Position numbers and translations under genes: made by a program
Source: Acutalibacteraceae bacterium
GTDB taxonomy: Bacteria > Bacillota > Clostridia > Oscillospirales > Acutalibacteraceae
Direction: 5' to 3'
DNA: 55,211 bases
Assembly: GCA_045593385.1 (NCBI GenBank)
Contig: JAZNWP010000048.1
Coordinates: forward strand, 1-55,211
The notes under the pieces: generated by a model
Seen by the model: only the letters and a program-made list of their open reading frames with translations
The model's database searches: none
What the model was told of the DNA's origin: nothing
Part shown: piece after piece, positions 29,239 through 54,722 of the stretch
Numbering within the stretch: the first letter of the stretch is position 1
How the letters are laid out: every line of letters starts with the position of its first letter

Positions 29239-29267
29239 ATTATATCAAATTTTTATATAAAAGTCAA
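29239..29267 (-). promoter_or_regulatory. sigma70-like promoter TTGACT-N17-TATAAT for the polymerase gene
   Basis: Reverse complement reads ttgact tttatataaaaatttga tataat. About 30 nt upstream of the SD. Confidence 0.5.
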
Positions 29268-29300
29268 ATTAATTCTATTATATTGTATATTGTCTCATAA

Positions 29301-30035
29301 TTATTCTCCCTTGTATCTAAATAATTTTTCTACTGCTTTAAAATTATTCTCTTTGTTTGTGGTTCTTGTAACTTCTTGTTCCCAAATAATTTCAAAATCA
29401 TCTGGAGCAGACTGTTCAGATACAAATACATAATTATCTTTACTTAATTCTCTTACCCAATTCCAAAAGTGGTCATAATCCATTTTTTCTTGATTAGCAT
29501 ATCCATAGAATTTTGTTCCTTGATATGGTGGATCAAGATAGATTACTGCACCAGATACCGGTTCAAGATCTTGATATCTTTGAGTTTTAAAAACAACTCC
29601 TTCAAGAGCTTTTGCTTGGGCTTCGAGATTGCGGCGAGCTTCGAGAAAGTAATTTCTAGCCTCGGTATTTTTTGCGTAACCGCGAGGAAAACCTCCATTT
29701 GAGTAGCTCGCAAAGAATTCCATAGCACCGATATCCGCAAGTGTCATGTCTTCTGGCATAATGCCATCTTTAACATAAGCCTTGCCCTTATCCCACAATT
29801 CTCTATTCCCTTCTGGAAGAACAAATTCCATACCCTTTTGAGCCGCTTGAAGAAGCGCGATGAGAGTATTACTTCTGTCATATCCTATTCTATTTTCACA
29901 TTTTATTTTATCTATAATATTCGCTCCACCAACAAAACACTCTATATAAGTATCTACATTGTTGTCGTCGATTGCTTTCTAAATTATAGGCACTATATAT
30001 TTAGCATACTTTGCTTTTGATCCCATATAAACCAT
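29301..30035 (-). CDS. dam: DNA adenine (N6) methyltransferase, Dam-like, 244 aa, 1 in-frame TAG
   Basis: Motif IV IYLDPPYQGT and motif I region FVGGANI. Track ORF 29301..29831 extended upstream through TAG 29978-29980 to ATG 30035 (SD ggag). Confidence 0.7.
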
Positions 30036-30048
30036 ATATAATCTCCTT

Positions 30049-31203
30049 TTAATCCTTTTTTACAATAACAAGTTTATCACTTGCTCTCGTCGCCGCGGTA
30101 TATAACCAACGAGCATGTTCTGTTTTATCAAACGGGAATTTTTCTTCTATTACAAGAACTTTATCCCATTCTGAACCTTGAGCCTTATGACAAGTAATTG
30201 CATATCCATATGTGAATTCTTTTGGAATTACATCACCTATTCTTGCTCTAAGTTTATTTAATTTATATTTATCTCTCCATTCAAGTTCACTCTCTCCGCC
30301 TTTCATAATGCGAGGATCCATGCTAATTATTCCAAAGTTTTCTTCGGCATCAGAAATAAATCCACCAGTAAGAGTATTAATGACTCCTTTATCATATGCA
30401 TACAAAGGGACATTAATTTTACCAGGAGTTGGATTTTGTAATGTTCCAATTGTACCATTTACCAAAGGATCGCCGTTTGTAAAATTAAACCAATCCCAAT
30501 AATTGCGGAGGCAGATAACTTTGTCTCCATTTTGCGGCTCGGGGCCAAATCCTTTTAGTTGGCGCATTTGGTCATTTACGCTATGTCTATTTAGATTTGT
30601 TGCAACCAAAATTTGATCTGCCCATTGGAGCATACCAGTGTTCAAATCATCCATAGTATAAATCTGAACTTGGTCATTTTTTTCGAGAGCTATTGGTTTT
30701 TGCTCACGGATGTCCATTGTAAGTCTAACAATTCCAGATTCAGTTGCTTGTCTCATAATTTCATCAAGGAAAATATGAGGATGATCTAATAAATGATTGT
30801 CTTCATCTTTATCTATTGGTGGTAGCTGAAATGGGTCTCCAAGACAAATTACATAAACATTATGACTAAATAATTTATCCATAATACTTTTTGGTGCCAT
30901 AGATACCTCATCAACTACAACTACCGTATAATCCAAAGATTTCTTGGGAATTCTTGTAAATCCTCCGCCAGGACGGGGAATACTATCATACAAAAGTCTG
31001 TGTAATGTCATGGCATTTTTATTACCTTTTTTAACCAAAACTTGAGCAGCTTTTCCTGTAAATGTAGCATAGCAAACTTTGCTCGCTTCTACGTCAAGAG
31101 CTTCGATAATAAACCGCACAAGAGTCGACTTGCCCGTTCCTGCATAGCCCGCTATTACGGTATATTTTTCGTGATCTCGATGTCGCTGAACCGCGATCCG
31201 CAA
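30049..31203 (-). CDS. Dda/RecD-like superfamily-1 DNA helicase, 384 aa, no TAG
   Basis: Walker A AGYAGTGKST, VVVVDEVSMAP, and C-terminal CHKAQGSEWDKVLV motifs typical of the RecD/Dda (AAA_30/UvrD_C_2) family. Confidence 0.75.
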   Translation of the reverse strand: MRIAVQRHRDHEKYTVIAGYAGTGKSTLVRFIIEALDVEASKVCYATFTGKAAQVLVKKGNKNAMTLHRLLYDSIPRPGGGFTRIPKKSLDYTVVVVDEVSMAPKSIMDKLFSHNVYVICLGDPFQLPPIDKDEDNHLLDHPHIFLDEIMRQATESGIVRLTMDIREQKPIALEKNDQVQIYTMDDLNTGMLQWADQILVATNLNRHSVNDQMRQLKGFGPEPQNGDKVICLRNYWDWFNFTNGDPLVNGTIGTLQNPTPGKINVPLYAYDKGVINTLTGGFISDAEENFGIISMDPRIMKGGESELEWRDKYKLNKLRARIGDVIPKEFTYGYAITCHKAQGSEWDKVLVIEEKFPFDKTEHARWLYTAATRASDKLVIVKKD

Positions 31204-31236
31204 ACCTTCCTCCTATTTTTTACTTAAAATCATATT

Positions 31237-32082
31237 TTATTCTCCCATCAAAATTTCTATTGTAATATCATTAATATCATTAATTCTTATTAATTTAATT
31301 CCTTTATCTAAACAATACTAATTTTTTAATTTATCTCTAAATTGAACCATTTCAATTGATTCCCAGCCTGTTTGTTGAAAATGCTAAATTCCATCAAACT
31401 CAATTAAATGAGATAAAGTCCCATCAGGATTAAAAATAGCAAAATCAAAGCGTAATTTGTTTTTATAAATCAGATCATTAAAAGTATATTCGCGTTCAAA
31501 TATAATATTATTTTCAGATAAAAGATTAGCAATCATTTCTTCTCCAATACTTTTAATACAACCGCAGGATTTAGTAGTTCCGTTTCGCAAAGATATTCCT
31601 CGAATAGATTTAATTGATCCGCATTTTAAACACTAACAATACCAATAAGAATCATTTTCATGGCCAAGATGTTTTTCGCTTAAATCTCGTTTAAGAACTT
31701 TTAAAAAACCATAAGTCTATCCAGACATATCAATTAATGTTGTTTTACGAATATGACAATTACTACAAAATTTTCTTTTTGAACGCAATACATTACTTCC
31801 TACATTTTCTATGTGTCCGCAATGAATACATTTACATTGATATAAAAGACAATTGTCTTTTGCTTTTTCTTTGCATTTATTTAATACTAAAAAATCTCCA
31901 AAGATATTTCCAATCATTTTATCTTTTTGACACTTACAAATAGGATTTTTTTTCAAACTATCAGAACGCATAGATTTTTCGTCTCCACAATATTCACATT
32001 TTATTTTCCAATAACGGGCTGCGGTATTCCTTGAATAATCTCGTTCTAAAACTTTATAACTTCCAAAAATAGAATTTATCAT
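31237..32082 (-). CDS. nuclease with three Zn-ribbon-like repeats and a C-terminal DUF559/Vsr-like PD-(D/E)xK endonuclease domain, 281 aa, 4 in-frame TAG; likely free-standing homing-type endonuclease
   Basis: Merges track ORFs 31717..32082 and 31384..31590 plus a downstream extension through TAG to TAA 31237-31239. C-terminus RFDFAIFNPDGTLSHLIEFDG-TAG-HF...KGIKLIRI matches the DUF559 core. N-terminus has repeated VL(E/K)RD...YW.C..CG...S.....SCGC modules. Confidence 0.5.
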
Positions 32083-32169
32083 TTAATCACTCCTTCTATT
32101 TTAGTTAAAAATTTATAATTAACAAATTTTTCATTTTGTCCTGTTTTTTTGTAAATTTAAATAAAAAAT

Positions 32170-32406
32170 TTAGTCGTGTTCTCCTATTGCTTCATCTAAT
32201 ATTTGAATAAAACGCATTAAATCTCTATTATGTCTATCTCTAATTCTCGTTTCTGCTTCAAACTGAGAAAGACCACGCTCACTTTTTAACATTGTTACTT
32301 CATGCATAAAAGCTTTTGATTGAGCGTCTTTATAGCGATATACAAGACTGTCAAACATATAGCCTTTTAAATGCTTATCATTTTTCTCGAACTTAAATTC
32401 ATTCAT
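32170..32406 (-). CDS. hypothetical protein, 78 aa
   Basis: Intact ORF. Promoter-like element immediately upstream. Confidence 0.4.
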   Translation of the reverse strand: MNEFKFEKNDKHLKGYMFDSLVYRYKDAQSKAFMHEVTMLKSERGLSQFEAETRIRDRHNRDLMRFIQILDEAIGEHD

Positions 32407-32441
32407 ACTAATTCACCTTTACTATATTTTCTCTCATTTAT

Positions 32442-32470
32442 ATTATACTTAATTTTTTAATAAAAATCAA
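32442..32470 (-). promoter_or_regulatory. sigma70-like promoter TTGATT-N17-TATAAT
   Basis: Reverse complement reads ttgatt tttattaaaaaattaag tataat upstream of gene 32170..32406. Confidence 0.4.
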
Positions 32471-32934
32471 TCTAAGAAAATATTATTCTCGCTTAAAATA
32501 GTAAATTCATAAGTTGGAACAATTCGGTCAAAAATTTCTAAATCAACTTTTGGTTTTCGGTTTTCGGCTCTTTCAACCAAGGCCGGCTGGAGCTGGGATA
32601 ATAATTCTCTATATTTAAGTAATTCATTAACTTCTGCTTCAAGTGTGGCAACTCTTTCTTCAAGGGTATCTATTGTAGAAGTTATACAATAAGCACTGTT
32701 CTCTAACATATCAATTTTATTTTTAGTTATACTAATTTCATTATTATATTCATTACCATCATATTGTAATTCAGTTATTGCATTATTTAATTGTGAAATT
32801 GCCTAAGTTGCTTCTTCTGTACTAATTCCAACACAACCCATAATTTCGCTTAAACTTTTTCCTATAACATATGGTTCGTAATCAAAAGAAACCAATCTAT
32901 TTCCATGTTTATCATAAGCATATACTGTTTCCAT
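32467..32934 (-). CDS. coiled-coil hypothetical protein, 155 aa, 1 in-frame TAG
   Basis: Track ORF 32467..32709 extended upstream through TAG 32803-32805 to ATG 32934 with SD aggaga. Confidence 0.45.
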
Positions 32935-32944
32935 ATTATTCTCC

Positions 32945-32996
32945 TATAAATAAAAATAAGGGGCCATATAGAAATATAAGTTTCTATATGGCCCTC
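32945..32996 (-). terminator. rho-independent terminator (minus strand)
   Basis: aggggccatatagaaa / tttctatatggccct 15-bp stem. On the minus strand it is followed by TTATTTTTATTT. Confidence 0.65.
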
Positions 32997-33156
32997 AATG
33001 TTATCCTACAAAGTAGGTATACGCCTTTTGGGCGTTTGTTTGTCTAATATTATAACTAAAAGAAGCACATCTTTCATAGCATTTCGCAAAACATAATGCT
33101 GCTTCAGACGGACTAGATAAATTTAAAAAATTTAAATAATTCATTGAACTACTATA

Positions 33157-33936
33157 TTTATATCCAAATACATTGAATTCTTTTTCAATAGTATTTTTAA
33201 GATATTCGCACTAATATTCTAAACTAGCCCCTGATAAAGTTCCATCAGTGTATGGTAAATACCACTAACAAATACCATAATATTGACCACTGTATAAATA
33301 TGGTTCTATATTTAAAGTCTAACCTCCAACTTCTGCCATAATATTACCCATAATTCCAGCGCATACATAGTCATTCCAACCTAACTCTTTCATATACAAC
33401 CAAATATATGATGCCACCGGATATTCAGATTTTCTTTTTTGCCACAATTCTTCCTCATAATCTATTTCTTCTATTTCAGTAGTAGTTTCGATTATAATTG
33501 GTGTAGTTGTTTCTTCTATAGTTGTTGAAATTTCATTAAAAGTAGTCTTAATTGTGGTTTCTATTTCAGTTGTGCTTTCAACTGTTCCACAGACTTCTTC
33601 CTCAATTGTAGTTTCTACAATTTCAGATGTTATTTCTTTAACAACATTTTCAATTATCTCACAAGATTCTTCTTCAATAATGCTTTCTGTTGGTTTGTAG
33701 GCTATATATTTAACCTCATAAAAAATTTCAGTAGATTCTTCTACCATTCCTTCAGTAGTAGTTTCTAATAATGGTATAACTTTTTTTACAACTTTTTTAG
33801 ATGGGATGTTAATTTCTAATATAGTTGAATTAATTGTTTTATCAGTTATGGCTGATATGTTTTTTATAGATAGAGTAAAAAATAAACTGATTGATAAAAT
33901 AAGTGCTATAATAGCAGTTAGAATATTTTTTTTCAT
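33157..33936 (-). CDS. secreted protein with signal peptide, Thr/Glu-rich linker and a phage-tail-lysozyme-like (peptidoglycan hydrolase) C-terminal domain, 259 aa, 3 in-frame TAG
   Basis: N-terminus MKKNILTAIIALILSISLFFTLSIKNISA is signal-peptide-like. Repetitive TTEIETTIKTT linker. C-terminus VCAGIMGNIMAEVGG resembles the AxGIxGNxxxESG motif of tail-lysozyme domains. Track ORF 33319.. extended through TAG to TAA 33157-33159. Confidence 0.4.
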
Positions 33937-33975
33937 AATTACCTCCTAATATTTCTATCAGGCCGTCAATTATAT

Positions 33976-35766
33976 TTAGAAATAGTATTTTTGTTCTCCA
34001 ATAATTTCATAATCCTCAATAATAATCTGAGGTTCTACAATACCATTCCACTCGTTTCGTCCGCATGTGCCGACGATATTAATGGTTATACAACCGAGTT
34101 CAGAGTAAAACTTTTCATACTCTTCTTGTGACGACTTGAATTTGATTAAACTCGTGCCATTTGGCAAGGTTATCTTCAAGGTAGGACTCTTGTCTTTTGA
34201 CATTAAAGTAACATTAGAACTAGTTAATTTAATATTTTCAATAGCAACAAGAGGTTCTTCTACCCCTTGGCCCCATAAAGATTTTAATTCAGCAATTTTA
34301 ATAATATCTTTTCCATTAAAGTCATTACCAGCATATATGAAATCAACCTTATAACATGGGGTAAAGTCAAAATCTGCCAAAGAATCGTTAGAGTAGTTTA
34401 TAAAGGTATCAATATTTAAATCTTTGATTCCAACACCAAGCGCGTTTGCATGCCCTTCCGCATACATAACTAAGCCGCTTTCTTTTAAAAACTCTCTCAA
34501 GTTGTCAAATTTAGATTTATCGTATCCTCTTCCTGAACCCTCCCAAGAAATGTCTTGTAAAACAAGCCTTTCTCCTTTTGTTCCTAAACATTCTATCTCT
34601 TGGATGGTTTTATTTAATAACAAAACCGGGCGTTGATATTGAGACATTAACTGATTTGCGATTAAACCAGTTAAGTTCTTATCAGTCGCAAAAGTATCTA
34701 ATTTAACAACTAAAATTTTATTCTCCAACAAATTTTGTTCTTCTATTGTGCGTTCAATTATTTCCAAGGCTGCGTCTCTTGCTTTTGTTTGCCTATTTTT
34801 TATGTTCATGCAATTACGACAAGCCTATTCTACTCTCGTCTCTTGCTGACCCTTACATCCTCGTTTAGTTGATGGGATTAGTTCATATCCCCGATAGTCA
34901 AGCATGGACTCGAATAGCATGACCTTTTCTTCTTGCGTTCCCATTCGAATCGTGGCATTTACATAGGGAGCAATATAAAAAGCTATTCCAAAAGGAGTGA
35001 TACCATTTTTTAATTGATATTCCTGTCTTTCGACCATTCCTCTGAAATACGGATTGCGGATACTTTTCAAACCTTTGTTTATTAAATGCTTTGTTTCATA
35101 GTCTCGCAAATCCATCATGTCGGCCACCATACCCAGTGCGACCAAATCTAAATATTGATCTGCATAATCAACATCCAAAAGAGTATCTATGTAAGAACAG
35201 AATTTATATACCATTCCTACACCAGAAAGTGATTTTGTTGGATAATCACACATTTGATTATTGATAACACAGGCATGTTCAGATTCTTTATCTGTTTCAT
35301 GGTGGTCTATTACTAACACATCTACTCCTCTTTCCGCAAGTTCTTTATGAACTTCATAATCATTTGAGCTTGAGTCGGGAGCAATTACTAGCTTAACATT
35401 GGTTGGAATGGTGTTAAGTAGTATTCCGTGTTCCTTCCCTGTATGGATACGATATAAAATGTTATTCTGCACAAAACCAGGGAAGAGACAATTTAAGTAG
35501 TTTATTAACGTTGCGGCAGATGTGTATCCATCGCAGTCGCTATCAATCTACACTAGAACTTTGTCGTTTTGTGAGATATGTTTGATAAGCATTTTTGCGC
35601 CCTTTTTAATATTTTTAATTAAAAGAGGATCTACAATATCCTTATTAGTTGTATTTAAATAGTGTTCTACATTTTCCGGGGCAATGCCTCGGTTGGCAAG
35701 CACCTGTTCGACCGCTGTCAACACTTTATTAGGCGGGAACTGTGGTGCAATAAGTTGATATTCCAT
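33976..35766 (-). CDS. recJ: DHH-family phosphoesterase, RecJ-like ssDNA exonuclease, 596 aa, 2 in-frame TAG; merges track ORFs 35548..35766, 34825..35472 and 33976..34809
   Basis: All three ORFs share one frame separated by TAG at 35548-50 and 34825-27. DHH motifs KVLV-TAG-IDSDCDGYTSAA and VLVIDHHETD. SD aaggagg before ATG 35766. Confidence 0.7.
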
Positions 35767-35819
35767 AAGAAATTCAACCTCCTTTCATGTAGATCACCAC
35801 CAACTTTATATTTGAAAAT

Positions 35820-36182
35820 TTATTCAATATATTTACTTCCTTTCGACCAATCAGGATGCCAATATCGAATATTATTTGGATAATAAGTTGCATAAGTTTG
35901 AGGACGAATTATATTATTATAAACTTCTAAGGTAATTCTAGTATCTACTATAGAAAAATCTGCTCTGTGACCTCTACTACAATCACCAGCTCTTCTAACT
36001 TTCCAAGAATCTATTATACCATCATCATTTTCGAAAAGTGCATTAGAACCATCCCTGCAGATTCTAACGTTCTAAGCTTCAATACCTTTCTTTTGATATT
36101 CCTAAACTATCTATTCAAAAAACTTATTTCCGTCTTCAATTTTTTCAGTCCAAATTATATATCTTCTATACCTTTTTTTCAT
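35820..36182 (-). CDS. hypothetical protein, 120 aa, 3 in-frame TAG
   Basis: Not in the track. ATG 36182 overlaps the primase TGA (ATGA). Frame is open through 3 TAG to TAA 35820-35822. Confidence 0.4.
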
Positions 36183-37279: not shown

Positions 37280-37283
37280 TACA

Positions 37284-37520: not shown

Positions 37521-37596
37521 ATTATTTATCTCCTTCTTATCTACAATTCCAAAATCGGAATCGTGTAATAAATTTAACTTACTTCTAAGCCCTCGC

Positions 37597-39144: not shown

Positions 39145-39151
39145 TTACCTC

Positions 39152-39845: not shown

Positions 39846-39874
39846 ATTATACCAAAAAATAATAAAAAAATCAA
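39846..39874 (-). promoter_or_regulatory. promoter TTGATT-N17-TGGTATAAT (extended -10); copy 1 of a conserved ~45-bp element
   Basis: Reverse complement reads ttgatt tttttattattttttgg tataat. Shares the block atatatattataccaaaa..aaaaaaatcaagt with 42257-42305 and 54686-54724. Confidence 0.5.
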
Positions 39875-39905
39875 GTCAGAGCTTTATTTACTCCGACTTG
39901 ATAAA
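39871..39905 (-). terminator. terminator hairpin whose T-tract overlaps the -35 of the promoter at 39846-39874
   Basis: Minus-strand caagtcggag-taaataaag-ctctgacttg followed by atttttttatt. Confidence 0.4.
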
Positions 39906-39920
39906 GTTTTACATTAAATC

Positions 39921-40880
39921 CTACTTAATATCACTTATAATTAAATAAATAAACTCTGCTTGTTCAGGAGTGGTATCACTAACTTTTTTACCCTTTCCAA
40001 GATATTTCTCAACAATAGAGGTAATCTTAGGAGCGTTAGTAGTTCCACTACTCATTAGCTGACCAACTAAATCTTGAAATTCAGCCATAAGCATATCATA
40101 ATCATAAGTTGTTTCAGTAGGAGCTACAATTCTTTCAGTAGTTACAAACATATTATCAGTTTCAGCAGCTTCCTTGTCAATTGCTTCATTAATAGCATTT
40201 TCAAGATTTTTATAGCTCATAGTAATTTCATTAGGAATATACTTAAAGCGGCAACCGCATTCAACAACGCCAGAAGGATCTCTCAAAGTAAGAACAGACA
40301 TTTCATTTGCATTTTTCTGATGGGTATAACCATAAATATCTGCCATACCTGCAATAACAGTCTTCGTTGAATTGCTAAGACTTGGACGGATTTTTGTTGT
40401 CTTCGTTCCATCTGGATTATCAATCTGTTCAAGTTTATCATGTCCGATAAAGAATACAGCGTATCCTAATTGAGTTAGTCCACGGAAAATTTCATTGAAT
40501 TCATCTTTAAATTTAGTCCAACCTTTTCCATATCCCATATCGCCAAGGTCTTCAATACCATTTTGATTACAAATATATTTTTTACATCTATCTGCAGCAA
40601 TATCAATAGTATCTACTATGACTGCGCTAAAAGTGCTTTGAACTTCTGGCTTTTTAAGTTCTCTATAAACTTGTTTCATTTCTGCCCATGAGGTAATGTC
40701 TTGCGCCATTACCCCAGGGAGAGCATGATATCCAGGTTCAAAAGCAAGAAGAAGAGATTTTCCCATCTATGTTGCGAGAGTTGTTTTACCAGTTTTAGGT
40801 GCTCCATAGATATATGTAATATATCCGCTTAAATCACGAGATACTTTATGAGGCTGTATATTTAATAAATTAATAGCCAT
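39921..40880 (-). CDS. phage AAA_24/Sak4-like RecA-fold ATPase, 319 aa, 1 in-frame TAG
   Basis: Track ORF 39921..40766 extended upstream through TAG 40767-69 to ATG 40880 (SD aggagg). Walker A GAPKTGKTTLAT. Walker B VIVDTID. Confidence 0.5.
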
Positions 40881-42275: not shown

Positions 42276-42304
42276 ATTATACCAAAATTAATTAAAAAAA
42301 TCAA
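42276..42304 (-). promoter_or_regulatory. promoter TTGATT-N17-TGGTATAAT; copy 2 of the conserved element
   Basis: Reverse complement reads ttgatt tttttaattaattttgg tataat. The -35 overlaps the folA stop codon. Confidence 0.5.
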
Positions 42305-42795: not shown

Positions 42796-43022
42796 ATAAA
42801 TTTTCCCTCATTCCAATTTTTGGCTGCTTTAATTTTAGCATCAAAAAGAGAAATCTCTTGAGCAAACCAGAATCCTCCAGTATTCATAGTTTTCTTATGA
42901 CAATTTGGACATTCAAGCCATAAATGAGTATAATAGGGATTTGGTCTAATAAATTCTGGATAAAATCCACAATCACAGGCCTAAATACTTACTACTTCAT
43001 TTGAAATAATATAATCTTTCAT
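42792..43022 (-). CDS. small Cys-rich (Zn-binding) protein, 76 aa, 1 in-frame TAG
   Basis: ATG 43022 overlaps the thyA TGA. CDCG...CPNCH. TGA 42792-94 overlaps the folA ATG. Confidence 0.35.
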
Positions 43023-43888
43023 ATTCCTAACTCCAATTTTAATTGAGGTTTAATAGGATTATAATTTACCATAGAAAAATCATCAATAGTAAAATCATAA
43101 AAATTATTTTTATCTTCATTAAGAACTAGCATACTTTCTGGATACACTCCATTATAATAATCTTTTGCGTCAAGTTCTTTAAATCTTTTTAGCATTTCAT
43201 TTGCTTGTTCTATATGACGATCATAAATTTGTTCATTGGCAACAAAATGCGAAAATACTCCAGGCAAATAATTTGTATGACGAGCAATCATCATTAATAA
43301 AGCAGCATACTATGCTTCATTAATGCCGCCTGGACCAGAAGCAGTTAGCATATCACCACTGCGCTGAACAAGAACCATATCAAGATATTCTTTTCCGTTT
43401 TCATTGCGGACGTTCCATATTGTGAGGAATGCGCAAGGGGCTAATCCGGCCGTTTCAGCAAGGTCCGTTTCTTGCCAAAGGGATACTATTTTACGACGAC
43501 CATATGGATCAGTTTCAATATCTTTAATAAGTTTGTTAATTAAATCATAGCGACTAACCGTTGCCCCATATCTTTGTCCAATTGTGCCGTCTCCAATATC
43601 CCAATCGCCCCACCAATTAACTCCCATTTCTTCCATTTTAGTTATTTCATTGGTTGGCTTTTGATAAATGGTAAAGATTTCTTTTATTCCAGTTTTCCAA
43701 GCAATTGGACGATATTGACAAATTGGAAATTCTCCACGAGATAAGTCATAAGTTCTAAAAGTATGATTTATTGATTTAGTATGTGCGGGAGTGCCATCCG
43801 CATATTTTGGACGGGGATTCCGGTCCCAATAGCCATCCGCAAGTATTCTATCAATAATTTCTTTCATATAAATATCTGCTTTATTCAT
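43019..43888 (-). CDS. thyA: thymidylate synthase (B. subtilis ThyA-type), 289 aa, 1 in-frame TAG; merges track ORFs 43310..43888 and 43019..43294
   Basis: DGTPAHT, IAWKTGIKEIFTIYQ, DGTIGQRYG, catalytic LAPCAF, QRSGDM, C-terminal FYDFTIDDFSMVNY. TAG 43310-12 aligns with Gln of FNVFQYN in B. subtilis ThyA. Confidence 0.8.
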
Positions 43889-45425: not shown

Positions 45426-45479
45426 AGTAAAAAAAATAAGGGGTAAGAATTATTTTCTTACCCCTTTGATAAAATCAAA

Positions 45480-45755: not shown

Positions 45756-45817
45756 AACTTTTTTTCTCCTTTTAATTAAATATTTTTTTTTATTTTTTTA
45801 AGCTTAGCTTATGTAAA

Positions 45818-45847
45818 TATTATATCAAAAAATTTTTGTTTTGTCAA
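45818..45847 (-). promoter_or_regulatory. consensus sigma70 promoter TTGACA-N17-TATAAT
   Basis: Reverse complement reads ttgaca aaacaaaaattttttga tataat, 60-90 nt upstream of the 45755 start. AT-rich UP-like region upstream. Confidence 0.6.
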
Positions 45848-45865
45848 GAAATTTTTTAATTTTTT

Positions 45866-46060: not shown

Positions 46061-46093
46061 TTAAAAATTTTCATCCTTAATCTTTACAATTTT

Positions 46094-46122
46094 ATTATAC
46101 AAAAATTTTTTTAATTTGTCAA
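46094..46122 (-). promoter_or_regulatory. consensus sigma70 promoter TTGACA-N17-TATAAT
   Basis: Reverse complement reads ttgaca aattaaaaaaatttttg tataat. Abuts the ligA stop codon. Confidence 0.55.
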
Positions 46123-48114
46123 TTAAGTTATTCCAAAAGTCTCGATAAATTCTTCTTCTGACAAGATTGGAATTCCTAATGACTTTGCACTATTATTTTT
46201 ACTTGATGTAGAATTGACATCATTATTTATTAAGTAATGAGTATTTTTTGAAACGGACCCAGTTACTTTCCCACCAAGAGCTTCAATTTTAGATTTTAGT
46301 TCATCTCTATTTTTGAAGCGATTAACTTTTCCAGTTATAACAAATATTTTATCAACAATTTTATTATTTGTAATTTCTTCTGTTTCAACTGGTTTTACAA
46401 AATTTATATAATTATTTACTATAAATTTTGCTTCATCGTAATTAAATTTAGAAATACTTGAATGCATTTCCACACCAAAATTTGGTAATTCATAAAACTT
46501 ATATTTATTTTCAACCGCTGAAATAAAATTTTCCCAAGTTTTAAAATGATTTGCCAGATCTTTTGATGCAGTTGTACCAATCAACGGAATACCTAAGGCC
46601 GCAATGAACTGATGAAGTTCACAGGTTTTTCCTTCCTCAATAGCAGATAGAATTTTTTCAACCGAGCGCATTCCAAATCCAGGTTTCTTAACCCAATCAT
46701 TTTTATGAGAAGAAAGAGTGAATATATCGGTGTAAGTTTCAATCCAACCCCACTCAAGAAGTTTTTCTAAAGTTGCTTTAGATATGCCTTTTATATCTAA
46801 ACCCTTCTTTCCACAGAAATGATCAAGTCTATTAATAAACTTTCCAGGGCAATTTGGATTGGTACATTCAAGCACAGTTGTTCCAAAAGCACCAGAATCA
46901 GATTTCTGTCGTGTTTCTCCATCACAAACAGGACAATATTTAGGTATTGTAAAATAATCTAATCTCGGATAATTATCTGCCTCTTGATAATGTTCGCTAT
47001 TACTAATTTGAGGAATAATCATATTCGCCTTATAAACTTCTATTTTTTGACCATAAAAAGGTTTTGTGTTTAAAGTTTTTCCCATAATACTAATATTATG
47101 AAGACTCGCTCGATTTACTTCAGTGCCATCAATATTCACAGGAGTAAATACAGCAACTGGAGTTAAGGTTCCTGTTCTTCCCATCGTCCATTCAATATCT
47201 AAAAGTGAAGTTAAAAATACATCATCATAAAATTTATATGCTAAAGCATTTTTAAAATGATGTTCAGTTTCTCCTAATGAGCGACCATATTCGCAATCAT
47301 TAAATTTGAAAACTGCTCCATCTATTGGATAAGAACATTCTTCTGCCATCCATTTTACATCTGAAATAAAAGATTCAACATGACTAACTTCTTTCATTGT
47401 TGCTCTAATAAAAGGAACAACAGTAAAAGACATATCCCTAAGATTTCTTAACTTTTCAGATAAAAAATCTATTTCTTGATAATCATCATAAAATGGAGTA
47501 ATAACATCCCAAGCTACGAAAGTTAGTTTTCTTTTAGAACATTCTTTTGAATCTAAAAGCCTAATACTTCCTGAAGCAAAATTCCTTGGTGTTGAATATA
47601 TTCCACTAAAATTTTCAAAATCTTTATAAGTGCAAATAATTTCTCCATCAATTGTTAATTTTTTAAGATAAGGAATTTTCTTTGGGACTGATGGAAGAAC
47701 TTTTACATTATGTAAAATATTTTCTCCAACAAGTCCATTACCTCTCGTTTCTGCGGAAACTAACTCTCCATTTTCATAAGTAAGAGAACAAGTTAATCCA
47801 TCCATTTTACACATAACAAGCATTTCTTCATTTCGTGAAAACCTAAGAACATCTTCTACAAGCTTGGTTTTTTCAAGAGATAACATTTTATGATCGTGAG
47901 TTTTTTTCTCTAACTCATTAACAAGTTCATAACTTATTGATTGAGTTGGAGAATTACTCAAAATGAGACCTGTTTTATTTTCTAAATCTTGTAATTTAAA
48001 ATATAAATCATCCCATTCCTTATCACTAATTAAAGGATTTCCTTCATCATATGCTTTCGTATATTCATTCAAGCATTTTACTAAATGAATTATCTCTCCA
48101 TAGAGTTTAATCAT
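46123..48114 (-). CDS. ligA: NAD+-dependent DNA ligase, 663 aa, no TAG
   Basis: Adenylation motif CKMDGLT. OB fold. Cys4 zinc finger CPVCDGE...CTNPNCPGK. HhH region. C-terminal BRCT (KIFVITGKVNRFKNRDELKSKIEALGGKV). Confidence 0.85.
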   Translation of the reverse strand: MIKLYGEIIHLVKCLNEYTKAYDEGNPLISDKEWDDLYFKLQDLENKTGLILSNSPTQSISYELVNELEKKTHDHKMLSLEKTKLVEDVLRFSRNEEMLVMCKMDGLTCSLTYENGELVSAETRGNGLVGENILHNVKVLPSVPKKIPYLKKLTIDGEIICTYKDFENFSGIYSTPRNFASGSIRLLDSKECSKRKLTFVAWDVITPFYDDYQEIDFLSEKLRNLRDMSFTVVPFIRATMKEVSHVESFISDVKWMAEECSYPIDGAVFKFNDCEYGRSLGETEHHFKNALAYKFYDDVFLTSLLDIEWTMGRTGTLTPVAVFTPVNIDGTEVNRASLHNISIMGKTLNTKPFYGQKIEVYKANMIIPQISNSEHYQEADNYPRLDYFTIPKYCPVCDGETRQKSDSGAFGTTVLECTNPNCPGKFINRLDHFCGKKGLDIKGISKATLEKLLEWGWIETYTDIFTLSSHKNDWVKKPGFGMRSVEKILSAIEEGKTCELHQFIAALGIPLIGTTASKDLANHFKTWENFISAVENKYKFYELPNFGVEMHSSISKFNYDEAKFIVNNYINFVKPVETEEITNNKIVDKIFVITGKVNRFKNRDELKSKIEALGGKVTGSVSKNTHYLINNDVNSTSSKNNSAKSLGIPILSEEEFIETFGIT

Positions 48115-48139
48115 TTTTATTCTCCTTAATTACAAATAT

Positions 48140-48168
48140 ATTATAATAAATTTTTTTTATTTTGTCAA
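48140..48168 (-). promoter_or_regulatory. consensus sigma70 promoter TTGACA-N17-TATAAT for ligA
   Basis: Reverse complement reads ttgaca aaataaaaaaaatttat tataat. Confidence 0.6.
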
Positions 48169-48191
48169 CTATATGCTGCTAGTAAGCAAGG

Positions 48192-50567
48192 TTAAACCTT
48201 GCTTACAGACAACACTTTATTATTTTTTATTACGATATTTCCTGCAGATGCTCTACTTAATACTGGAATTTCAGAAGCTTCTATACAAATACTTGATTTA
48301 TCACCAAGAATTAATACGCTATCTGCATCCTCAACAAGGGTCGCCGCACTTACTCTTCCAGTTGACTCAGTTGGTTTATAGCAAGCAAGTCCCTTACCAG
48401 CTCTCTTTTGGACAGGAATTTCAGATAAATCAATTCTCTTCGCTACACCATTTGTAGCAAATATAGCTAACTTATCAGTCACATTACGAACTGGAATTGC
48501 TGAAACGATATAGTCATCATCTGCAAGATTAATACCTTTAATACCGGTTGTAGTTCTTGATGTGGGTCCAACTTCTTTAGAATCAAATCTAATACATATA
48601 CCTTTTGAAGTGATTAAGATTAATTGTTCATCTTTTACAAGAGATACTGCGGTAAGCTCGTCGCCTTCTCGAAGGTTGATTGCGGCAAGTCCGGTCTTTT
48701 TCTTCGTTTTTACATATTCTTCAAGAGATGTCTTTTTAACAAGACCATTCTTAGTTACAAATAATACATATTGAGCATCGGTATCTCTATAAATTGAATA
48801 GATAACTGAAGGTTCTTCTTCAACTTCCATATTAACCAATGACTTTACCGATTGACCTTTAGAAACATTTGTTCCTACTGGAACATCATTTACCAAAAGT
48901 CTATACATTTTTCCTTTATTTGAGAAAATCATCAAGGAATCTATTGTATTTGTGCGGATAACTGCTTGAGTTATATCATCCTGCGTCTTTATGCCTTTAC
49001 CATTCCTCTTCTGGGTGCGGAAGCTCGATGAGGGGATTCTTTTAACGAGACCACCTTCTGTCATTACCACAACACATTTTTCTGGTTCAACGAATTCAAT
49101 TTCTTTTTCTTCTTTGGTTGAAACTACTTGAGTTATAGATGAACGACGAGCATCACCGTATATTTTCTTTAATGAGTTGAAAGTATTTATCATTTCTGGA
49201 ATTGGATTAGATAAAATTGTATTTAATCTTTCTAATTCTTTAACTAAATCAGCTAATTCTTTTTCAATTTCTACTTTTTCTAATTTAGCTAATTTTGCTA
49301 ATTTCATGTCAAGAATTGCTTTTGCTTGTTCTTCATTCAACTCATAAGCAGCCATAAGTTTCGTTTTAGCGGCTGCCGCAGATTCACTACTCTTAATCAT
49401 TGCAATAACATTATCAATATCTTCAAGAGCTTTCAATAAACCTTCTAAAATATTGATTCTATGAGCAATTTTATCTGCTTCATATTTTGTTTTTCTTAAT
49501 AAAACATCTTTTTGATGCTCTACATATATTTCTAAAAGTTGTTTAATATTTAACAATCGAGGTTTCTTATTTACAAGTGCTACTTGGTTGAAACTATAAG
49601 TATCTTCCAACCTTGTGAGCTTAAATAATTTTGCAATAATCGGCTCAGTAGGGACTCCTTTGGCAACCTCTATAACAAAGCGGACGCCATCTTTATTGCT
49701 TTCATCTCTGATTGCCGTGATGCCTTCCATCTTTCCTTCTTCACATAATTTGTCTATTTCTTGAACAAGGTCTTCTTTTGAGACTTTATATGGAATGGAG
49801 GAAAATACAATACTATCTCCTCGCTTGTCAGATTCAATGGTATATTCACCTCTAATTCTTGCCCTGCCTTTTCCAGTTAAGTAAGCAGTAGGCAATTCAT
49901 CTTTATTAATTATCAATCCGCCAGTAGGAAAATCTGGACCAGAAATATAATTAAGTAATTCTTTTACTTCACAATTTGGGTTTTCTACTAAAAACACTGC
50001 TGCATCCATAACTTCAGTTAAATTATGAGGGGCAAAACTACAAGCCATAGCAACCGCAATTCCAGAAGTTCCATTAACAATTAAATTAGGGATTCTACTT
50101 GTCAAATAAACTGGTTCATTTTCTACGTCAGTATAAGCTAATTGCCAATCAACAGTATTCTTTCTTATGTCTGCAAGCATCTCTTCGCCTATTTTAGATA
50201 ACTTACATTCAGTATATCTGTAGGCTGCAGGTTCATCTCCATCTCTACTGCCATTATTTCCATGAAACGTGATTAATGGATATCTCATATTCCAAGGCTG
50301 GCTTAACCAACATAATGCTCCATATATACTTGAATCTCCGTGCGGATGGAAGCGGCTCATTGTATCTCCAACCGGCTGAGCGCATTTTACAAACTTTTTA
50401 TTATTCATTTGCCCTTTATCAAACATATCCCAAAGAATTCTTCTTGCTACTGGTTTTAAACCATCTTCTGCTGAAGGGATTGCTCGATCAGTTATAACGC
50501 TTAAACTATAATCAAGGAAGCTTTGTTCCACTTCCCCGATAATCGGGGTCTGAATTATGTCTCCCAT
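48192..50567 (-). CDS. gyrA: type IIA topoisomerase subunit A (GyrA/ParC/T4 gp52-like), 791 aa, no TAG
   Basis: RRILWDM...PHGD. Active-site region AAYRYTECKL. C-terminal beta-pinwheel repeats. Confidence 0.85.
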   Translation of the reverse strand: MGDIIQTPIIGEVEQSFLDYSLSVITDRAIPSAEDGLKPVARRILWDMFDKGQMNNKKFVKCAQPVGDTMSRFHPHGDSSIYGALCWLSQPWNMRYPLITFHGNNGSRDGDEPAAYRYTECKLSKIGEEMLADIRKNTVDWQLAYTDVENEPVYLTSRIPNLIVNGTSGIAVAMACSFAPHNLTEVMDAAVFLVENPNCEVKELLNYISGPDFPTGGLIINKDELPTAYLTGKGRARIRGEYTIESDKRGDSIVFSSIPYKVSKEDLVQEIDKLCEEGKMEGITAIRDESNKDGVRFVIEVAKGVPTEPIIAKLFKLTRLEDTYSFNQVALVNKKPRLLNIKQLLEIYVEHQKDVLLRKTKYEADKIAHRINILEGLLKALEDIDNVIAMIKSSESAAAAKTKLMAAYELNEEQAKAILDMKLAKLAKLEKVEIEKELADLVKELERLNTILSNPIPEMINTFNSLKKIYGDARRSSITQVVSTKEEKEIEFVEPEKCVVVMTEGGLVKRIPSSSFRTQKRNGKGIKTQDDITQAVIRTNTIDSLMIFSNKGKMYRLLVNDVPVGTNVSKGQSVKSLVNMEVEEEPSVIYSIYRDTDAQYVLFVTKNGLVKKTSLEEYVKTKKKTGLAAINLREGDELTAVSLVKDEQLILITSKGICIRFDSKEVGPTSRTTTGIKGINLADDDYIVSAIPVRNVTDKLAIFATNGVAKRIDLSEIPVQKRAGKGLACYKPTESTGRVSAATLVEDADSVLILGDKSSICIEASEIPVLSRASAGNIVIKNNKVLSVSKV

Positions 50568-50688
50568 AAGGGACCTCCTTTATATCTACAAATTTATCAA
50601 AATATTCATTATTAATTGTTGGAATATAATTATTTATAATTTCTTCTATTAAATCATATATTTTAACTGAATTATATTTTAAACTAAA

Positions 50689-50802
50689 CTAATTATTTTT
50701 ATATTCTACTTTTCCATCTATTATATCTAAAAGCCTTTTTTCTTGTAAATGTTTTTCAAGTATCATAGAAATTTTTTCTTTTGAATTAGCTAAATGAGGC
50801 AT
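50689..50802 (-). CDS. small hypothetical protein (37 aa to TAG; about 96 aa if TAG is read through to TGA 50512-14, overlapping the gyrA start)
   Basis: SD ggaggaag then ATG 50802 (MPHLANSKEK...). Frame meets TAG at 50689-91. Confidence 0.25.
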   Translation of the reverse strand: MPHLANSKEKISMILEKHLQEKRLLDIIDGKVEYKNN

Positions 50803-51262
50803 ATGCTTCTTCCTCCGTAATATATCCAGTAGCAAGTTGATCTGCAAGTTCATTCCAATCGTCACCAGCATGACCTTTTATTTTTCTCAATTCAATTCGA
50901 TATCCTTCTTTATAGTAATCATAATATGCTTGGATTAAATCTAGATTTTCAGGAATTTTTTTATCGCTTTTTATCCAACCACGTCTAGCCCAACCAAACA
51001 TCCAATCGTTAAGAGTATTTACACAATATGCAGAGTCGCTATATACAACTGGCGGCTGACCCCAATCTTCACATTTAATTCCAAAATTAAACATTACATA
51101 TAATATTGCTTTTAATTCTTCTCGATTATTTGTCGTATTTTCGGACCTTTTGGAGCGGACGAACTGGACACTTCCATTTTCATCCACTCCTACTATTCCA
51201 TATCCACCTTTAGCATTGGCTTTTCCATTTCCAATACAAGAACCATCAGTATAAAAAATCAT
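50786..51262 (-). CDS. rnhA: ribonuclease HI, 158 aa, no TAG
   Basis: FYTDGSCIGNG...GGYGIV, TNNREEL, VVYSDSAYCVN, GHAGDDWNELADQLA match the RNase H catalytic DEDD motifs. Confidence 0.8.
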   Translation of the reverse strand: MIFYTDGSCIGNGKANAKGGYGIVGVDENGSVQFVRSKRSENTTNNREELKAILYVMFNFGIKCEDWGQPPVVYSDSAYCVNTLNDWMFGWARRGWIKSDKKIPENLDLIQAYYDYYKEGYRIELRKIKGHAGDDWNELADQLATGYITEEEAYASFS

Positions 51263-51656
51263 TAAGACTAAACTACCTTTCTGTTTTATTTAAATAAGTG
51301 TCTTTTTCTAAAAAAGGTGCTTCTTCTTTTGGTTTAAAAATAGTTATATTTTTAACAACATTACTATTAACTAATAAAATATCATTATTTGGAAAAACTT
51401 TTTTTAATTCTTGATATAAAATTTTATATTCACCCATATCTATATCATCAGAAATTTGACACATAATAACATCATTGGGGTTTGTTTTAACAATCTAAAC
51501 AGGAATTCCATCTGACCAAACATCAACAGTCCCGTTTAGAGAAGAATCTGGATATATCGGTGAAGACGAATATTTGCTAAAATCAATTCCATCAAGCGTT
51601 GAAGATAAATATTTACTAAAATCAATTCCATCAATTGAATTATTTATATTACACAT
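51246..51656 (-). CDS. hypothetical protein, 136 aa, with a 13-aa tandem repeat (IDGIDFSKYLSS x2) and 2 in-frame TAG
   Basis: ATG 51656 lies 2 nt after the gyrB stop. Track ORF 51273..51464 is its C-terminal part. Reads through TAG 51273-75 to TGA 51246-48. Confidence 0.35.
51562..51639. repeat. 39-bp tandem direct repeat x2 (in-frame, coding)
   Basis: gaagacgaatatttgctaaaatcaattccatcaagcgtt / gaagataaatatttactaaaatcaattccatcaattgaa. Confidence 0.6.
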
Positions 51657-53586
51657 CTACATTTGCCCTCCAAGCATTATTTTCAATGAACTTTTTTCTT
51701 GGGTCAACACTTTCACCCATAAGACTCATAAATGTTTTTGCTACTTCGGTAGCATCTTCCATTGTAATTTGTTTTAAAGTTCTTGTTTCTTTTGACATAA
51801 CAGTTTCTGCCATTTCTTCAGGATCCATTTCACCAAGACCCTTCATTCGACCAAGCTCAAAATTCTTTGAAGTAGACTTTCTAAATGCTTCAAGTGCGGC
51901 ATCATCTTTTAAATATTGAATCTTAGTTCCCATAGTAGCTTTATAAAGAGGAGGCACTGCCGCATATACATAACCCTTTTCCAGTAATTCCGGACAGAAC
52001 TTCCAGATAAATGTGAGGAAGAGGACGCGTATGTGGCTGCCATCAACGTCAGCGTCTGCGGTGATAATAAACTTACCATAACGAAGTTTTGTTTCATCAA
52101 CGATAATTTTATTGTCTTTCACTTCTAAGCCAAAAGCATCAACCATACCACTTATTTCTTTATTTTGAAGAGCTTTATGTAAATCACATTTCAAAACATT
52201 AAGTGGCTTACCACGAAGCTGAAACACTGCTTGTGTTAATCTGTCTCTCGCTTCTTTTGTTGATCCAGCAGCAGATTTACCCTCTACAATAAATACTTCA
52301 CAGTTATATCTATCTTTCGAGCTAGCATCTGCAAGAACATCTGGCATAATTACTCTGCGCTTAGCATCGGCTTTGCGCACAGTTTCCTTAGCCTTTTTTG
52401 CCTTTTCCCTTGCCGCTCGAGCCAAAAGTGCTTTATCTACAATAGCCTTAGCATCTTTTGGATTTGCGTCAAGCCAAACTTTTATTTCCTTAGATACTAA
52501 TCTTTGGACTGCCGTTCTTGCTTCGCTACTGGAAAGAACATCTTTTGTCTGACCAGAGAAAACTGGGTCTGGCATAATAAATGAAAGAACAAGAACAAGT
52601 CCTTCTTTTAATTCTTCGCCAGTGATATTAGCATCTTTTTCTTTTAATAATTTATTATCTCTTGCGTAATCGTTAATTGTGCTTGTAAGCGCAGTTCTGA
52701 AACCGGTTAAGTGAGTTCCCGCGCTATTTGGAATTGAATTGGTATATAATTTATAAGTATCAGTATAATTATCATTATACTGCATAGCAAGTTTTACTCC
52801 AATTCTATCTTCCATATTTTCAGTATAAAATACTGATGTTAATTTTGTTTTGTCTTTATTTAAATCATTAATATAATCTTTAATACCATTTTGAGAAGTA
52901 ATTATTTCTTTTGATTTATCTTCAAATTGAAGTGAAAAAATCAATCCTGGAGACAAATAAGCTAATTCTTGAATTTGCTTTTTTAAAGCATTATAATCAA
53001 GAGAGATACCTTCTTTAAAAATCGATATATCTGGCTTAAAAGATATACAAGTCCCAGAAACTGTTTTATCAATTACACCATTTAAGCCTAAAAGCGGTTC
53101 TTCTTTGTAGCTAATTAATTCACCTTTTTTAAATTCGGCAGTTGCTTTTTTGCCATTTCGAGCAGAAACAACTTTAAATATTTCTGATAAAGCATTAGTC
53201 GCTTTTGCACCTACACCATTCATACCACCAGACGTATTATATCCTGCTTTTCCATCACTATCGAATTTAGCACCGGTATGTAATTTGGTATAAACATTAA
53301 CCAAAGTTTCACTTCCATCTTCAGCTTTGCCGAAAGGAACGCCACGGCCATTATCTCTAATAGTTATAATATCATCTTTAACATAAATTTCGCACTCTGT
53401 GCAATGTCCATTCAGATATTCATCAACAGCATTTGATATAATTTCGAGGGTGATGTGCCTTACACCTTCTGGTCCAGTTGAACCGATATACATACCCGCA
53501 CGAAGTCTAATTGCTTCAATACCCTCTAAGGTCTTAATTTGATTTACGCCATACTCAGCATTATTTACGTTGTTTGGTATTTCCAT
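51649..53586 (-). CDS. gyrB: type IIA topoisomerase subunit B (GyrB/ParE/T4 gp39+60-like), 645 aa, no TAG
   Basis: GHKL ATPase (EIISNAVDE, GRGVPFG). TOPRIM EVFIVEGKSAAGS. PLxGK. C-terminal tail. Confidence 0.85.
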   Translation of the reverse strand: MEIPNNVNNAEYGVNQIKTLEGIEAIRLRAGMYIGSTGPEGVRHITLEIISNAVDEYLNGHCTECEIYVKDDIITIRDNGRGVPFGKAEDGSETLVNVYTKLHTGAKFDSDGKAGYNTSGGMNGVGAKATNALSEIFKVVSARNGKKATAEFKKGELISYKEEPLLGLNGVIDKTVSGTCISFKPDISIFKEGISLDYNALKKQIQELAYLSPGLIFSLQFEDKSKEIITSQNGIKDYINDLNKDKTKLTSVFYTENMEDRIGVKLAMQYNDNYTDTYKLYTNSIPNSAGTHLTGFRTALTSTINDYARDNKLLKEKDANITGEELKEGLVLVLSFIMPDPVFSGQTKDVLSSSEARTAVQRLVSKEIKVWLDANPKDAKAIVDKALLARAAREKAKKAKETVRKADAKRRVIMPDVLADASSKDRYNCEVFIVEGKSAAGSTKEARDRLTQAVFQLRGKPLNVLKCDLHKALQNKEISGMVDAFGLEVKDNKIIVDETKLRYGKFIITADADVDGSHIRVLFLTFIWKFCPELLEKGYVYAAVPPLYKATMGTKIQYLKDDAALEAFRKSTSKNFELGRMKGLGEMDPEEMAETVMSKETRTLKQITMEDATEVAKTFMSLMGESVDPRKKFIENNAWRANVDV

Positions 53587-54317
53587 TTAAAACCTCCACA
53601 TTTATTTCTTTTTCCATTACAAACTTTTGAAATGCCACTGGCATCGCAATCATTATCTGCGGCAGCTAATGCTACACTACCATAAATCTGTAATTCTTCA
53701 TTATTATCATTCATTTTTATTACTTGTTTACTTGATTTTGTAATTCTATTATTTTGAACTTGATTAACTTTTATTTCTGGAATAATAATTTCATTTTCTT
53801 CATCTAAAAATCTAAAAATACGATTGCCAGTTGTCAATCTTGTTCCATTACAAACATTACTGATTTTAAATCTATCTAATCCAGTTGCTTCACCTGCTTC
53901 TGCGAGAGAGTTCCAAATAACAAGAATGTTATTGGCAGAGTCAATTTCACAAACTCGTTTACCGTATTTTTCTCTTTTGGTATCACTCATTTTCTTTGCT
54001 ATTACAGGATCAAACATAGGACTATCAGTTTTATCAGTTTGATTATATCCATTTGGCTTAACACAATCTTCTTTAATAATCCAATTGTGCTCTGCTTCAA
54101 TCATTGCTTTCCAAGTTGGTAAAGTATCAACTATTTCAAAAGTGAAGTTAGCAATACCAAACTCTCTGAAAGCGACCATTAAAGGATAATTATAATGATG
54201 GTCTTTTTCGTTGATGGAAGCTTCTTTATGCTACCTCCATCTGCGTTCAGTTTCAATTGATGAACCAATATAAACCATTCCATTTTTTTGATTAGTTATT
54301 TTATAAATTTGATACAT
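53565..54317 (-). CDS. free-standing GIY-YIG homing endonuclease (Seg/I-TevI-like with NUMOD-like linker), 250 aa, 1 in-frame TAG
   Basis: ATG 54317 with SD aaggtaaggtg. YQIYKITNQKNGMVYIGSSIETERRWR-TAG-HKEA (GIY...YIG...R..H). EHNWIIKEDCVKPNGYN. Repeated ISNVCNGTRLTTGNRIFRF / ISKVCNGKRNKCGGFKWKY modules. The 3' end overlaps the gyrB start by 22 nt. Confidence 0.7.
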
Positions 54318-54413
54318 AGAATTCACCTTACCTTTCTATTATATCATAAAAATTGATAAAAATTAATTTTCCATTCTGGGCCAATGCCAGGACAGAGTTG
54401 ATGAAATTAACCT

Positions 54414-54656
54414 TTATTCTGTCAATAGATGTGCGGCAGCAGGCAATTCTGTTACAATATGCTCTAATTCTCCATTAAATTCATATTCTTTTTTACATTT
54501 TTTACATAACCAATGACTTAAAGTGAGATATCCATCAATTAAATTCATTGATTGCTTACAATATGGACATTTTAAAGGAGTAATACCGGGTCTTAACCGA
54601 ATTGCTTCAATGCCTTCGAGTGTTTTTATATCTTTAACACCATAATCTATTGACAT
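54414..54656 (-). CDS. 80-aa ORF whose first ~24 aa duplicate the GyrB N-terminus (IKTLEGIEAIRLRPG), then a Zn-ribbon (CPYC...CKKC)
   Basis: The shared 15-aa core (IKTLEGIEAIRLR) is identical to GyrB 51649..53586 at protein level; differs at synonymous sites (att/ata, aag/aaa, tta/ctc, aga/cgg ...). Own promoter upstream. Confidence 0.5.
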   Translation of the reverse strand: MSIDYGVKDIKTLEGIEAIRLRPGITPLKCPYCKQSMNLIDGYLTLSHWLCKKCKKEYEFNGELEHIVTELPAAAHLLTE

Positions 54657-54693
54657 AGCTTAAAATCCTTTCTATTTTTTATTTTACAAATAT

Positions 54694-54722
54694 ATTATAC
54701 CATATTTTTTTTAAAAAATCAA
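54694..54722 (-). promoter_or_regulatory. promoter TTGATT-N17-TGGTATAAT; copy 3 of the conserved element
   Basis: Reverse complement reads ttgatt ttttaaaaaaaatatgg tataat, upstream of ORF 54414..54656. Confidence 0.5.

Follow-up and report, generated by a model that had tools for sequence, protein, structure and literature searches.

A probable family of nine host-type promoters along the replication module of a TAG-recoding gut phage

Early phage promoters that are read by host RNA polymerase with sigma-70 or sigma-A are familiar from T5 (P25, P26 and N25), T7 (A1-A3), T4, SPO1 and phi29. Here we describe candidate promoters of this kind in contig JAZNWP010000048.1 (assembly GCA_045593385.1, deposited as an Acutalibacteraceae bacterium), whose 55,211 nucleotides we call the window. 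We consider it probable that nine sites, P1-P9, are copies of one strong host-sigma promoter family dividing the ~36-kb minus-strand module of an AT-rich phage that recodes TAG. The sites resemble the known early promoters in their near-perfect -35 and -10 hexamers, 17-nt spacer, A/T-rich surroundings and frequent extended -10, and in being clustered on one strand of an early/replication module with none in the structural module. They differ in the unusual frequency of a TTGATT -35 followed by a T-run, and in belonging to an uncultured, TAG-as-glutamine gut phage lineage known from sequence alone.

Three described systems are close to this one. A TAG-recoding, SPbeta-like gut phage group is represented by phAss-1 (Phassvirus), in a paper that contains no promoter analysis (PMC10607447). 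It shares with the window's lineage genomes of ~130-190 kb from gut metagenomes, a DnaE-type polymerase, a very long tail gene and the use of TAG as a sense codon in many open reading frames (ORFs); the G+C content of phAss-1 is 44.5%, against 31% in the window. SPbeta carries a repeated operator, SPBRE, which is bound by the repressor MrpR and lies in early promoter regions including those of yorE and yorM (PMC10516654). The window likewise has a repeated element in the early-operon promoter regions of a phage whose replication module is homologous, but promoter elements account for the whole repeat, no separate conserved 15-bp motif was seen, and the spacers of such promoters diverge among relatives; this comparison is one of arrangement. 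T4-type PeSLs (promoter-early stem-loops) pair a strong sigma-70-like promoter with a stem-loop terminator, recur between early genes and accompany indels (PMC2839356, PMC4122927); recombination between their copies yields excised mini-circles (PMC2839356).

Plus-strand genes occupy 1-19 kb of the window, and a minus-strand block devoted to replication and nucleotide metabolism runs from ~19 kb to its end. The nine sites all lie in this block, as follows; a bracketed triplet is an extended -10 (TGn), which falls inside the 17-nt spacer.

54694-54722, minus strand: P1, TTGATT-N17(TGG)-TATAAT; next an 80-aa CxxC gene (54656-54414), then an HNH-like gene, gyrB, RNase H and gyrA
48140-48168, minus strand: P2, perfect TTGACA-N17-TATAAT; ligA (48114-46123) downstream
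46094-46122, minus strand: P3, perfect TTGACA-N17-TATAAT; a 64-aa gene with one in-frame TAG downstream
45819-45847, minus strand: P4, perfect TTGACA-N17(TGA)-TATAAT, with an A/T-rich tract upstream; a 91-aa gene (45755-45480) downstream
42276-42304, minus strand: P5, TTGATT-N17(TGG)-TATAAT; genes for a 120-aa winged helix-turn-helix (wHTH) protein, a YorF-like protein and an AAA_24 (YorG-like) protein downstream
39846-39874, minus strand: P6, TTGATT-N17(TGG)-TATAAT; a YorH-like gene and the DnaB helicase gene downstream, on to recJ
32442-32470, minus strand: P7, TTGATT-N17-TATAAT, no TGn; a 78-aa gene, a helicase and a methyltransferase downstream
29239-29267, minus strand: P8, TTGACT-N17(TGA)-TATAAT; dnaE (29206-25316) downstream
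21907-21935, minus strand: P9, TTGACT-N17(TGA)-TATACT; the last minus-strand genes, including that for dUTPase, downstream

The sites were located with regular expressions on both strands, and chance was estimated from 300 dinucleotide-preserving shuffles. TTGAC(A/T)-N17-TATAAT matches four times (first bases of the -35 at 29267, 45847, 46122 and 48168; 0.10 expected) and TTGATT-N17-TATAAT also four times (32470, 39874, 42304 and 54722; 0.16 expected), all on the minus strand. Perfect 12/12 matches to TTGACA-N17-TATAAT number three against 0.05 expected, and TTGATT-N14-TGGTATAAT has three matches against 0.00. Not one of the 300 shuffles attained any observed count for the strict patterns, which lie at least 25-fold above chance, and neither strict pattern matches on the plus strand or in the plus-strand module at 1-19 kb. 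Loose promoter-like matches (at least 9/12) are as frequent as in the shuffles, including in the structural module, and the signal is confined to the near-perfect sites. The genuine contrast in the window is between the modules: the minus-strand one has such promoters, and the plus-strand structural one has none. A weight matrix built from the first eight sites gives those training sites scores of 38.6-54.5 and the best background at most 11.3, and it recovered P9 (32.6), which an earlier, sequence-only reading of this DNA had missed. All nine sites score 10-12/12 against the sigma-70/sigma-A consensus with a 17-nt spacer.

That reading had reported the other eight as near-consensus host-type promoters, and they are present on the minus strand where it had placed them, except that the site of the 91-aa gene begins at 45819 rather than 45818. 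Its expectation that the motifs would follow the gene strand and exceed chance was borne out, with no match on the opposite strand, and the sites have the orientation, intergenic placement, excess over shuffles and conservation at orthologous positions predicted for sigma-70/sigma-A-type promoters. Its formula for a second motif class, TTGATT-N17-TGGTATAAT, names a real motif with slightly wrong spacing, since TGG falls within the 17-nt spacer.

The placement of the sites is compact. P3's -35 directly adjoins the ligA stop codon; the DHFR stop codon is the TGA within the -35 of P5, the TGA within the -35 of P7 is likewise the stop codon of the ORF upstream, and at P9 an upstream ORF ends on the TGA of the extended -10. 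P3 and P4, both perfect and nearly identical, flank the 64-aa gene. From promoter end to start codon the gap is 25-60 nt, and a GGAG-type ribosome-binding site precedes each start codon.

Relatives were fetched with the AAA_24 protein (61-99% identity) and comprise four ENA contigs and 50 IMG/VR loci; orthologous upstream regions were anchored on the first gene 3' of each window promoter, and dereplication left a pooled set of 98 distinct promoters. Counts of TTGAnn-N17-TATAAT across 752 kb of these loci are 195 for the gene strand and 3 for the opposite strand. The 17-nt spacer and TATAAT are kept at orthologous promoters in most relatives down to ~40-60% protein identity, while the flanks and the spacer sequence diverge. 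Such conservation amid diverging surroundings is strong evidence that the sites are functional. In the close clade, where downstream proteins are at least ~70% identical, the -35 variant is fixed per position while spacer bases vary; because the variants are stable despite spacer change, promoter strength may be selected, or tuned, site by site.

Several features bear on whether the sites form one family. Every site in the window has an A/T-only spacer, a T at -15, the -10 hexamer and, downstream, ATAT(A/T)T and then GTAA, and every site retains the TTGA of the -35, in contrast to extended -10 promoters as a separate class. The sequence-only reading had assigned the extended -10 to its class B (TTGATT), as opposed to class A (TTGAC(A/T)). 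TGn is indeed present at P1, P5 and P6 of class B, but it also occurs in class A, at P8 (29267) and P4 (45847), and at P9, and it is absent from P7. Among the 98 pooled promoters TGn accompanies 50% of TTGACA, 85% of TTGACT and 86% of TTGATT sites, and G at -14 accompanies 50%, 85% and 94%, respectively. TTGACT, formally of class A, resembles TTGATT, with a T-run spacer and high TGn. An extended -10 is known to compensate for a weaker -35, and TGn rises here with the number of -35 mismatches, which argues for compensation along a continuum. The -35 variant also switches in distant relatives:

P4 orthologs: TTGACA, TTGACT, TTGATT, TTGAAA
P5 orthologs: TTGATT, TTGACT, TTGACA, TTGAAA
P6 orthologs: TTGATT, TTGACT, TTGACA
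P7 orthologs: TTGATT, TTGACT

We conclude that the sites appear to form one promoter family with tuned variants, with no sign in the sequences of two temporal sets.

At P6, the junction between the AAA_24 gene and yorH, a putative terminator overlaps the promoter. The hairpins found near the promoters are these.

39870-39902, minus strand: terminator hairpin at P6, found by a terminator scan; 13 pairs, 5 of them G-C, then TTTTTTTATTA
45438-45466, minus strand: terminator-like hairpin, 12 pairs then ATTTTTTTTA; closes the one-gene P4 unit
32961-32994, minus strand: terminator-like hairpin, 14 pairs, 6 of them G-C; 3' of a 311-aa gene
48182-48206, minus strand: hairpin spanning the gyrA stop codon, 11 bp, no T-tract, 13 nt upstream of P2

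The P6 hairpin begins 6 nt past the AAA_24 stop codon and folds at -18.2 kcal/mol; its stem is ATCAAGTCGGAGT/GCTCTGACTTGAT. The TTGATT of the -35 consists of the last five bases of the stem and the next T, and the 3' arm and T-tract of the hairpin are the -35 and spacer of P6, which agrees with the earlier claim that a terminator shares its T-tract with a -35 at this junction. With a G+C-containing stem-loop, a T-tract directly after it and a stop codon before it, the element has the form of an intrinsic (Rho-independent) terminator. The arrangement is kept across the family. In seven close sequences all 13 pairs are retained (100%, against 24-48% with the partner slid). Distant relatives have unrelated stems at the same junction (GGGTAGTA/TACTACCC, GCCGAGG/CCTCGGC and CTCTGGA/TCCAGAG), which directly adjoin TTGA(T/C)T and a T-run in all but one. 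We infer that TTGATT is kept at P6 because T-rich -35 and spacer sequence can also supply the U-tract of a terminator, which TTGACAAAA could not.

Taken together, these data make the host-promoter interpretation well supported, and the following mechanism is what they would predict. Host RNA polymerase would recognise the -35 (TTGAC(A/T) or TTGATT), the 17-nt A/T-only spacer, often with TG at -15/-14, and TATAAT at -10, and would initiate ~7 nt past the -10, where ATAT(A/T)T-GTAA is conserved. The different -35 hexamers would form a continuum of strength in which the extended -10 offsets the weaker TTGACT and TTGATT. At P6 the hairpin plus UUGAUUUUUUU would stop transcription arriving from P5, the same TTGATT and T-run would serve as -35 and spacer of the next promoter, and the overlap would insulate and reset expression of the yorH-dnaB operon. 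Several points weigh against this account. Start sites, the identity of the polymerase and termination, like relative strength, are all deduced from sequence. The P6 hairpin varies in the close clade at five positions, each by one-sided wobble, with zero double compensatory changes. The pooled promoters are phylogenetically related, so that the percentages are not from independent samples, and the position-specific, stable TTGATT or TTGACA of the close clade would also fit functional classes. Finally, the only matches to genome contigs are to metagenome bins, and a host's own promoter consensus is not directly comparable.

The output is an operon map of the replication module on which nine promoters and three predicted terminators are placed. 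The module belongs to a widespread, uncultured gut phage lineage with TAG as a glutamine codon, which appears to use host-type promoters for that module and none for its structural module. The map is relevant to how such phages time a switch of genetic code, and the overlapping terminator and -35 is a conserved case of signal compaction. The sigma-A consensus and the strong Shine-Dalgarno sites suggest a Bacillota host and are useful for host prediction. The current understanding of phage transcription is unchanged by these results.

A secondary possibility, which we find doubtful, is that the promoter or promoter/terminator blocks are also recombination joints, that is, portable cassettes like T4-type PeSLs or "moron" boundaries that swap small genes. 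The window aligns with five relatives up to the gyrA stop (48196) and again from 48168-48171, where the P2 -35 has its first base; between these two points the relatives have ~270 bp that include an extra gene of ~90 aa. Eight alignments begin at, or at most 10 nt from, the P8 -35 (29267), and the near-identical P3 and P4 bracket the 64-aa gene. The blocks recall PeSLs in being repeated strong promoters between early genes, and some coincide with indel or module junctions (P2 and P8). Only P6 is a true composite, with the terminator overlapping the -35 rather than beside it; P2 has a nearby hairpin without a T-tract, and the other seven copies have no stem-loop. Other indels are not bordered by promoters, namely the 281-aa gene (32082-31237, missing from relative L001) and a ~220-bp difference between thyA and DHFR (43019-42798). 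Selection preserving a promoter amid neighbouring turnover would give the same homology break. The phage lineages are unrelated and the host here is probably Gram-positive. A role in recombination would in any case add to promoter function rather than replace it.

Small differences in gene content from the relatives L001-L003 (90-92% DNA identity) were compared at window positions 32082-31237, 30049-29301 and 43019-42798. The 281-aa gene that L001 lacks carries four TAGs in the window. L001 and L003 have genes of 318 and 98 aa between the helicase and the methyltransferase, both missing from the window, and L001 has a promoter-like site with a 16-nt spacer directly after the helicase stop.

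TAG is a sense codon throughout the window, most clearly at 1-15000 on the plus strand, and also at 22444-24669, 33976-35766, 43019-43888 and 39909-40880 on the minus strand. Reading it as sense merges fragmented plus-strand ORFs into proteins of 505, 443, 1966, 720 and 787 aa and restores full-length NrdD, RecJ, ThyA and AAA_24. The alignment of NrdD to a solved homologue passes through five TAGs, and relatives have CAA or CAG (Gln) opposite two TAG codons of AAA_24. These alignments indicate that the phage reads TAG as glutamine. A tRNA scan of the whole window found no tRNA gene. In the minus-strand module (19100-55000) the codon is unevenly distributed: the core replisome genes (gyrB, gyrA, ligA, dnaB, a 366-aa gene, dnaE and the genes for RNase H, DHFR and the YorF-like protein) have zero in-frame TAGs, and accessory genes have one to nine (nine in a GIY-YIG gene, five in nrdD, four in the 281-aa gene, two in recJ and one in thyA). 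Six of the nine promoters are followed first by a TAG-free gene, against 16 TAG-free genes among 42 overall. This link is suggestive only; the uneven distribution of TAG may reflect timing relative to a code switch. A more ambitious idea, which we consider unlikely, joins the two themes: the blocks would be recombination joints that swap small genes, a Gram-positive analogue of PeSLs, and a fixed hierarchy of -35 hexamers would time the TAG-free replisome before the TAG-containing accessory genes. If true, a hierarchy of operon strength would time gene sets during the genetic-code switch.

The sequence-only reading had suggested two temporally distinct promoter sets. In a functional version of that model, TTGAC(A/T) promoters would be constitutive and immediate-early, and the ~45-bp TTGATT/TGGTATAATATAT element would contain a further site bound by a phage regulator, such as one of the small wHTH proteins encoded just downstream. 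This now seems quite improbable. Three of the window's TTGATT sites do match at 33/36 bases or similar across the block, the -35 variant is constant per position in close relatives while spacer bases vary, a phage-encoded wHTH lies directly 3' of P5 and possibly of P4, and SPbeta, with the same replication module, has SPBRE in its early promoter regions (PMC10516654). The common bases of the block, though, are all explained by the -35, T-run, TGn, -10 and A/T discriminator, and neither a dyad nor an additional conserved motif was seen in it. Apart from the elements contacted by polymerase, orthologous sites show no conservation of spacer or flank, unlike an SPBRE-type operator, and an extra operator-like motif in the block was rejected on the divergence of the spacers. 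The switching -35 at P4-P7 orthologs, the intermediate TTGACT promoters and the presence of TGn and ATAT..GTAA in both classes likewise argue for a single, graded family. Class B had also been said to precede small regulator-like or Zn-finger genes; putative small DNA-binding genes do follow, but they follow both variants. That the matches are functionless chance products of a genome of only 31% G+C, in which loose matches do occur at shuffle frequency, is virtually excluded and in effect already refuted by the at least 25-fold excess of strict matches, the strand bias (total in the window, 195:3 in relatives) and the intergenic, conserved orthologous positions.

The proteins encoded by the minus-strand block are GyrB, GyrA, RNase H, an NAD-dependent ligase, ThyA, DHFR, the wHTH protein, the AAA_24 ATPase, a DnaB-type helicase, a RecJ-like nuclease, an SF1 helicase, a D12 methyltransferase, a 1296-aa DnaE, guanylate kinase, NrdD and dUTPase. 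A set with GyrA/B, LigA, DnaB, DnaE, RNase H, ThyA, DHFR and NrdD is typical of early or middle phage genes. DnaE is closest to YorL of the SPbeta group (40% identity), and this match, together with YorF and YorH family matches that come from the relatives' gene calls, points to an SPbeta-like yorF-yorL replication module. Among the gene names proposed earlier, DnaE, LigA and the 120-aa wHTH are supported, whereas the 91-aa wHTH has a sub-threshold z-alpha match only (19.6 bits against a cut-off of 21) and the 80-aa Zn-finger a sub-threshold Zn-ribbon match plus CxxC motifs; the 78-aa gene downstream of P7 (32470) has no match. Near-identical DNA was looked for in cultured phages and none was found, and relatives were returned neither by exact-protein look-up of LigA nor by an IMG/VR scan with it. 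Metagenomic relatives number in the hundreds, on contigs of 125-200 kb. The only genome-contig matches are two metagenome bins, one labelled Gemmiger formicilis (54% identity), and they are unconvincing as host.

Some further elements were observed. Just 3' of P4 (45800-45818, minus strand), the predicted 5' end of the transcript is a small stem-loop, TAAGC-TAA-GCTTA. In relatives it reads TAACC-GAGA-GGTTA or TAAGC-AAAA-GCTTA, in which a G-C to C-G swap preserves pairing; a role in stabilising the 5' end or in regulation is possible. At 54338-54366 on the minus strand a possible extended -10 promoter with a poor -35 (TTAATT-N17-TGATATAAT) precedes a 253-aa I-HmuI/NUMOD-like endonuclease gene. 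A homing-endonuclease-like gene is also found at 45425-44415 (the GIY-YIG gene with nine TAGs), and one interrupts dnaB in relative L002.

In the plus-strand module, TATAATAAA occurs shortly upstream of several structural genes (4014, 12409, 14753 and 15426), twice directly after a terminator hairpin and with no recognisable -35. As a late-promoter core it was too weak to claim, with no shared flanks seen. A Rfam scan of the whole window returned no family, including for the long non-coding stretch after a terminator at 15885-16170 (plus strand), which together with the 16-18 kb region has repeated GGTCC/AAAAGGTTA-like words and a local G+C of 39%, against ~27% nearby. Where the plus- and minus-strand modules converge, at 19048-19100, there is a strong bidirectional terminator-like hairpin on both strands (AAGGGCTCACTTATGA...TCATAAGTGAGCCCTT, then a T-run).

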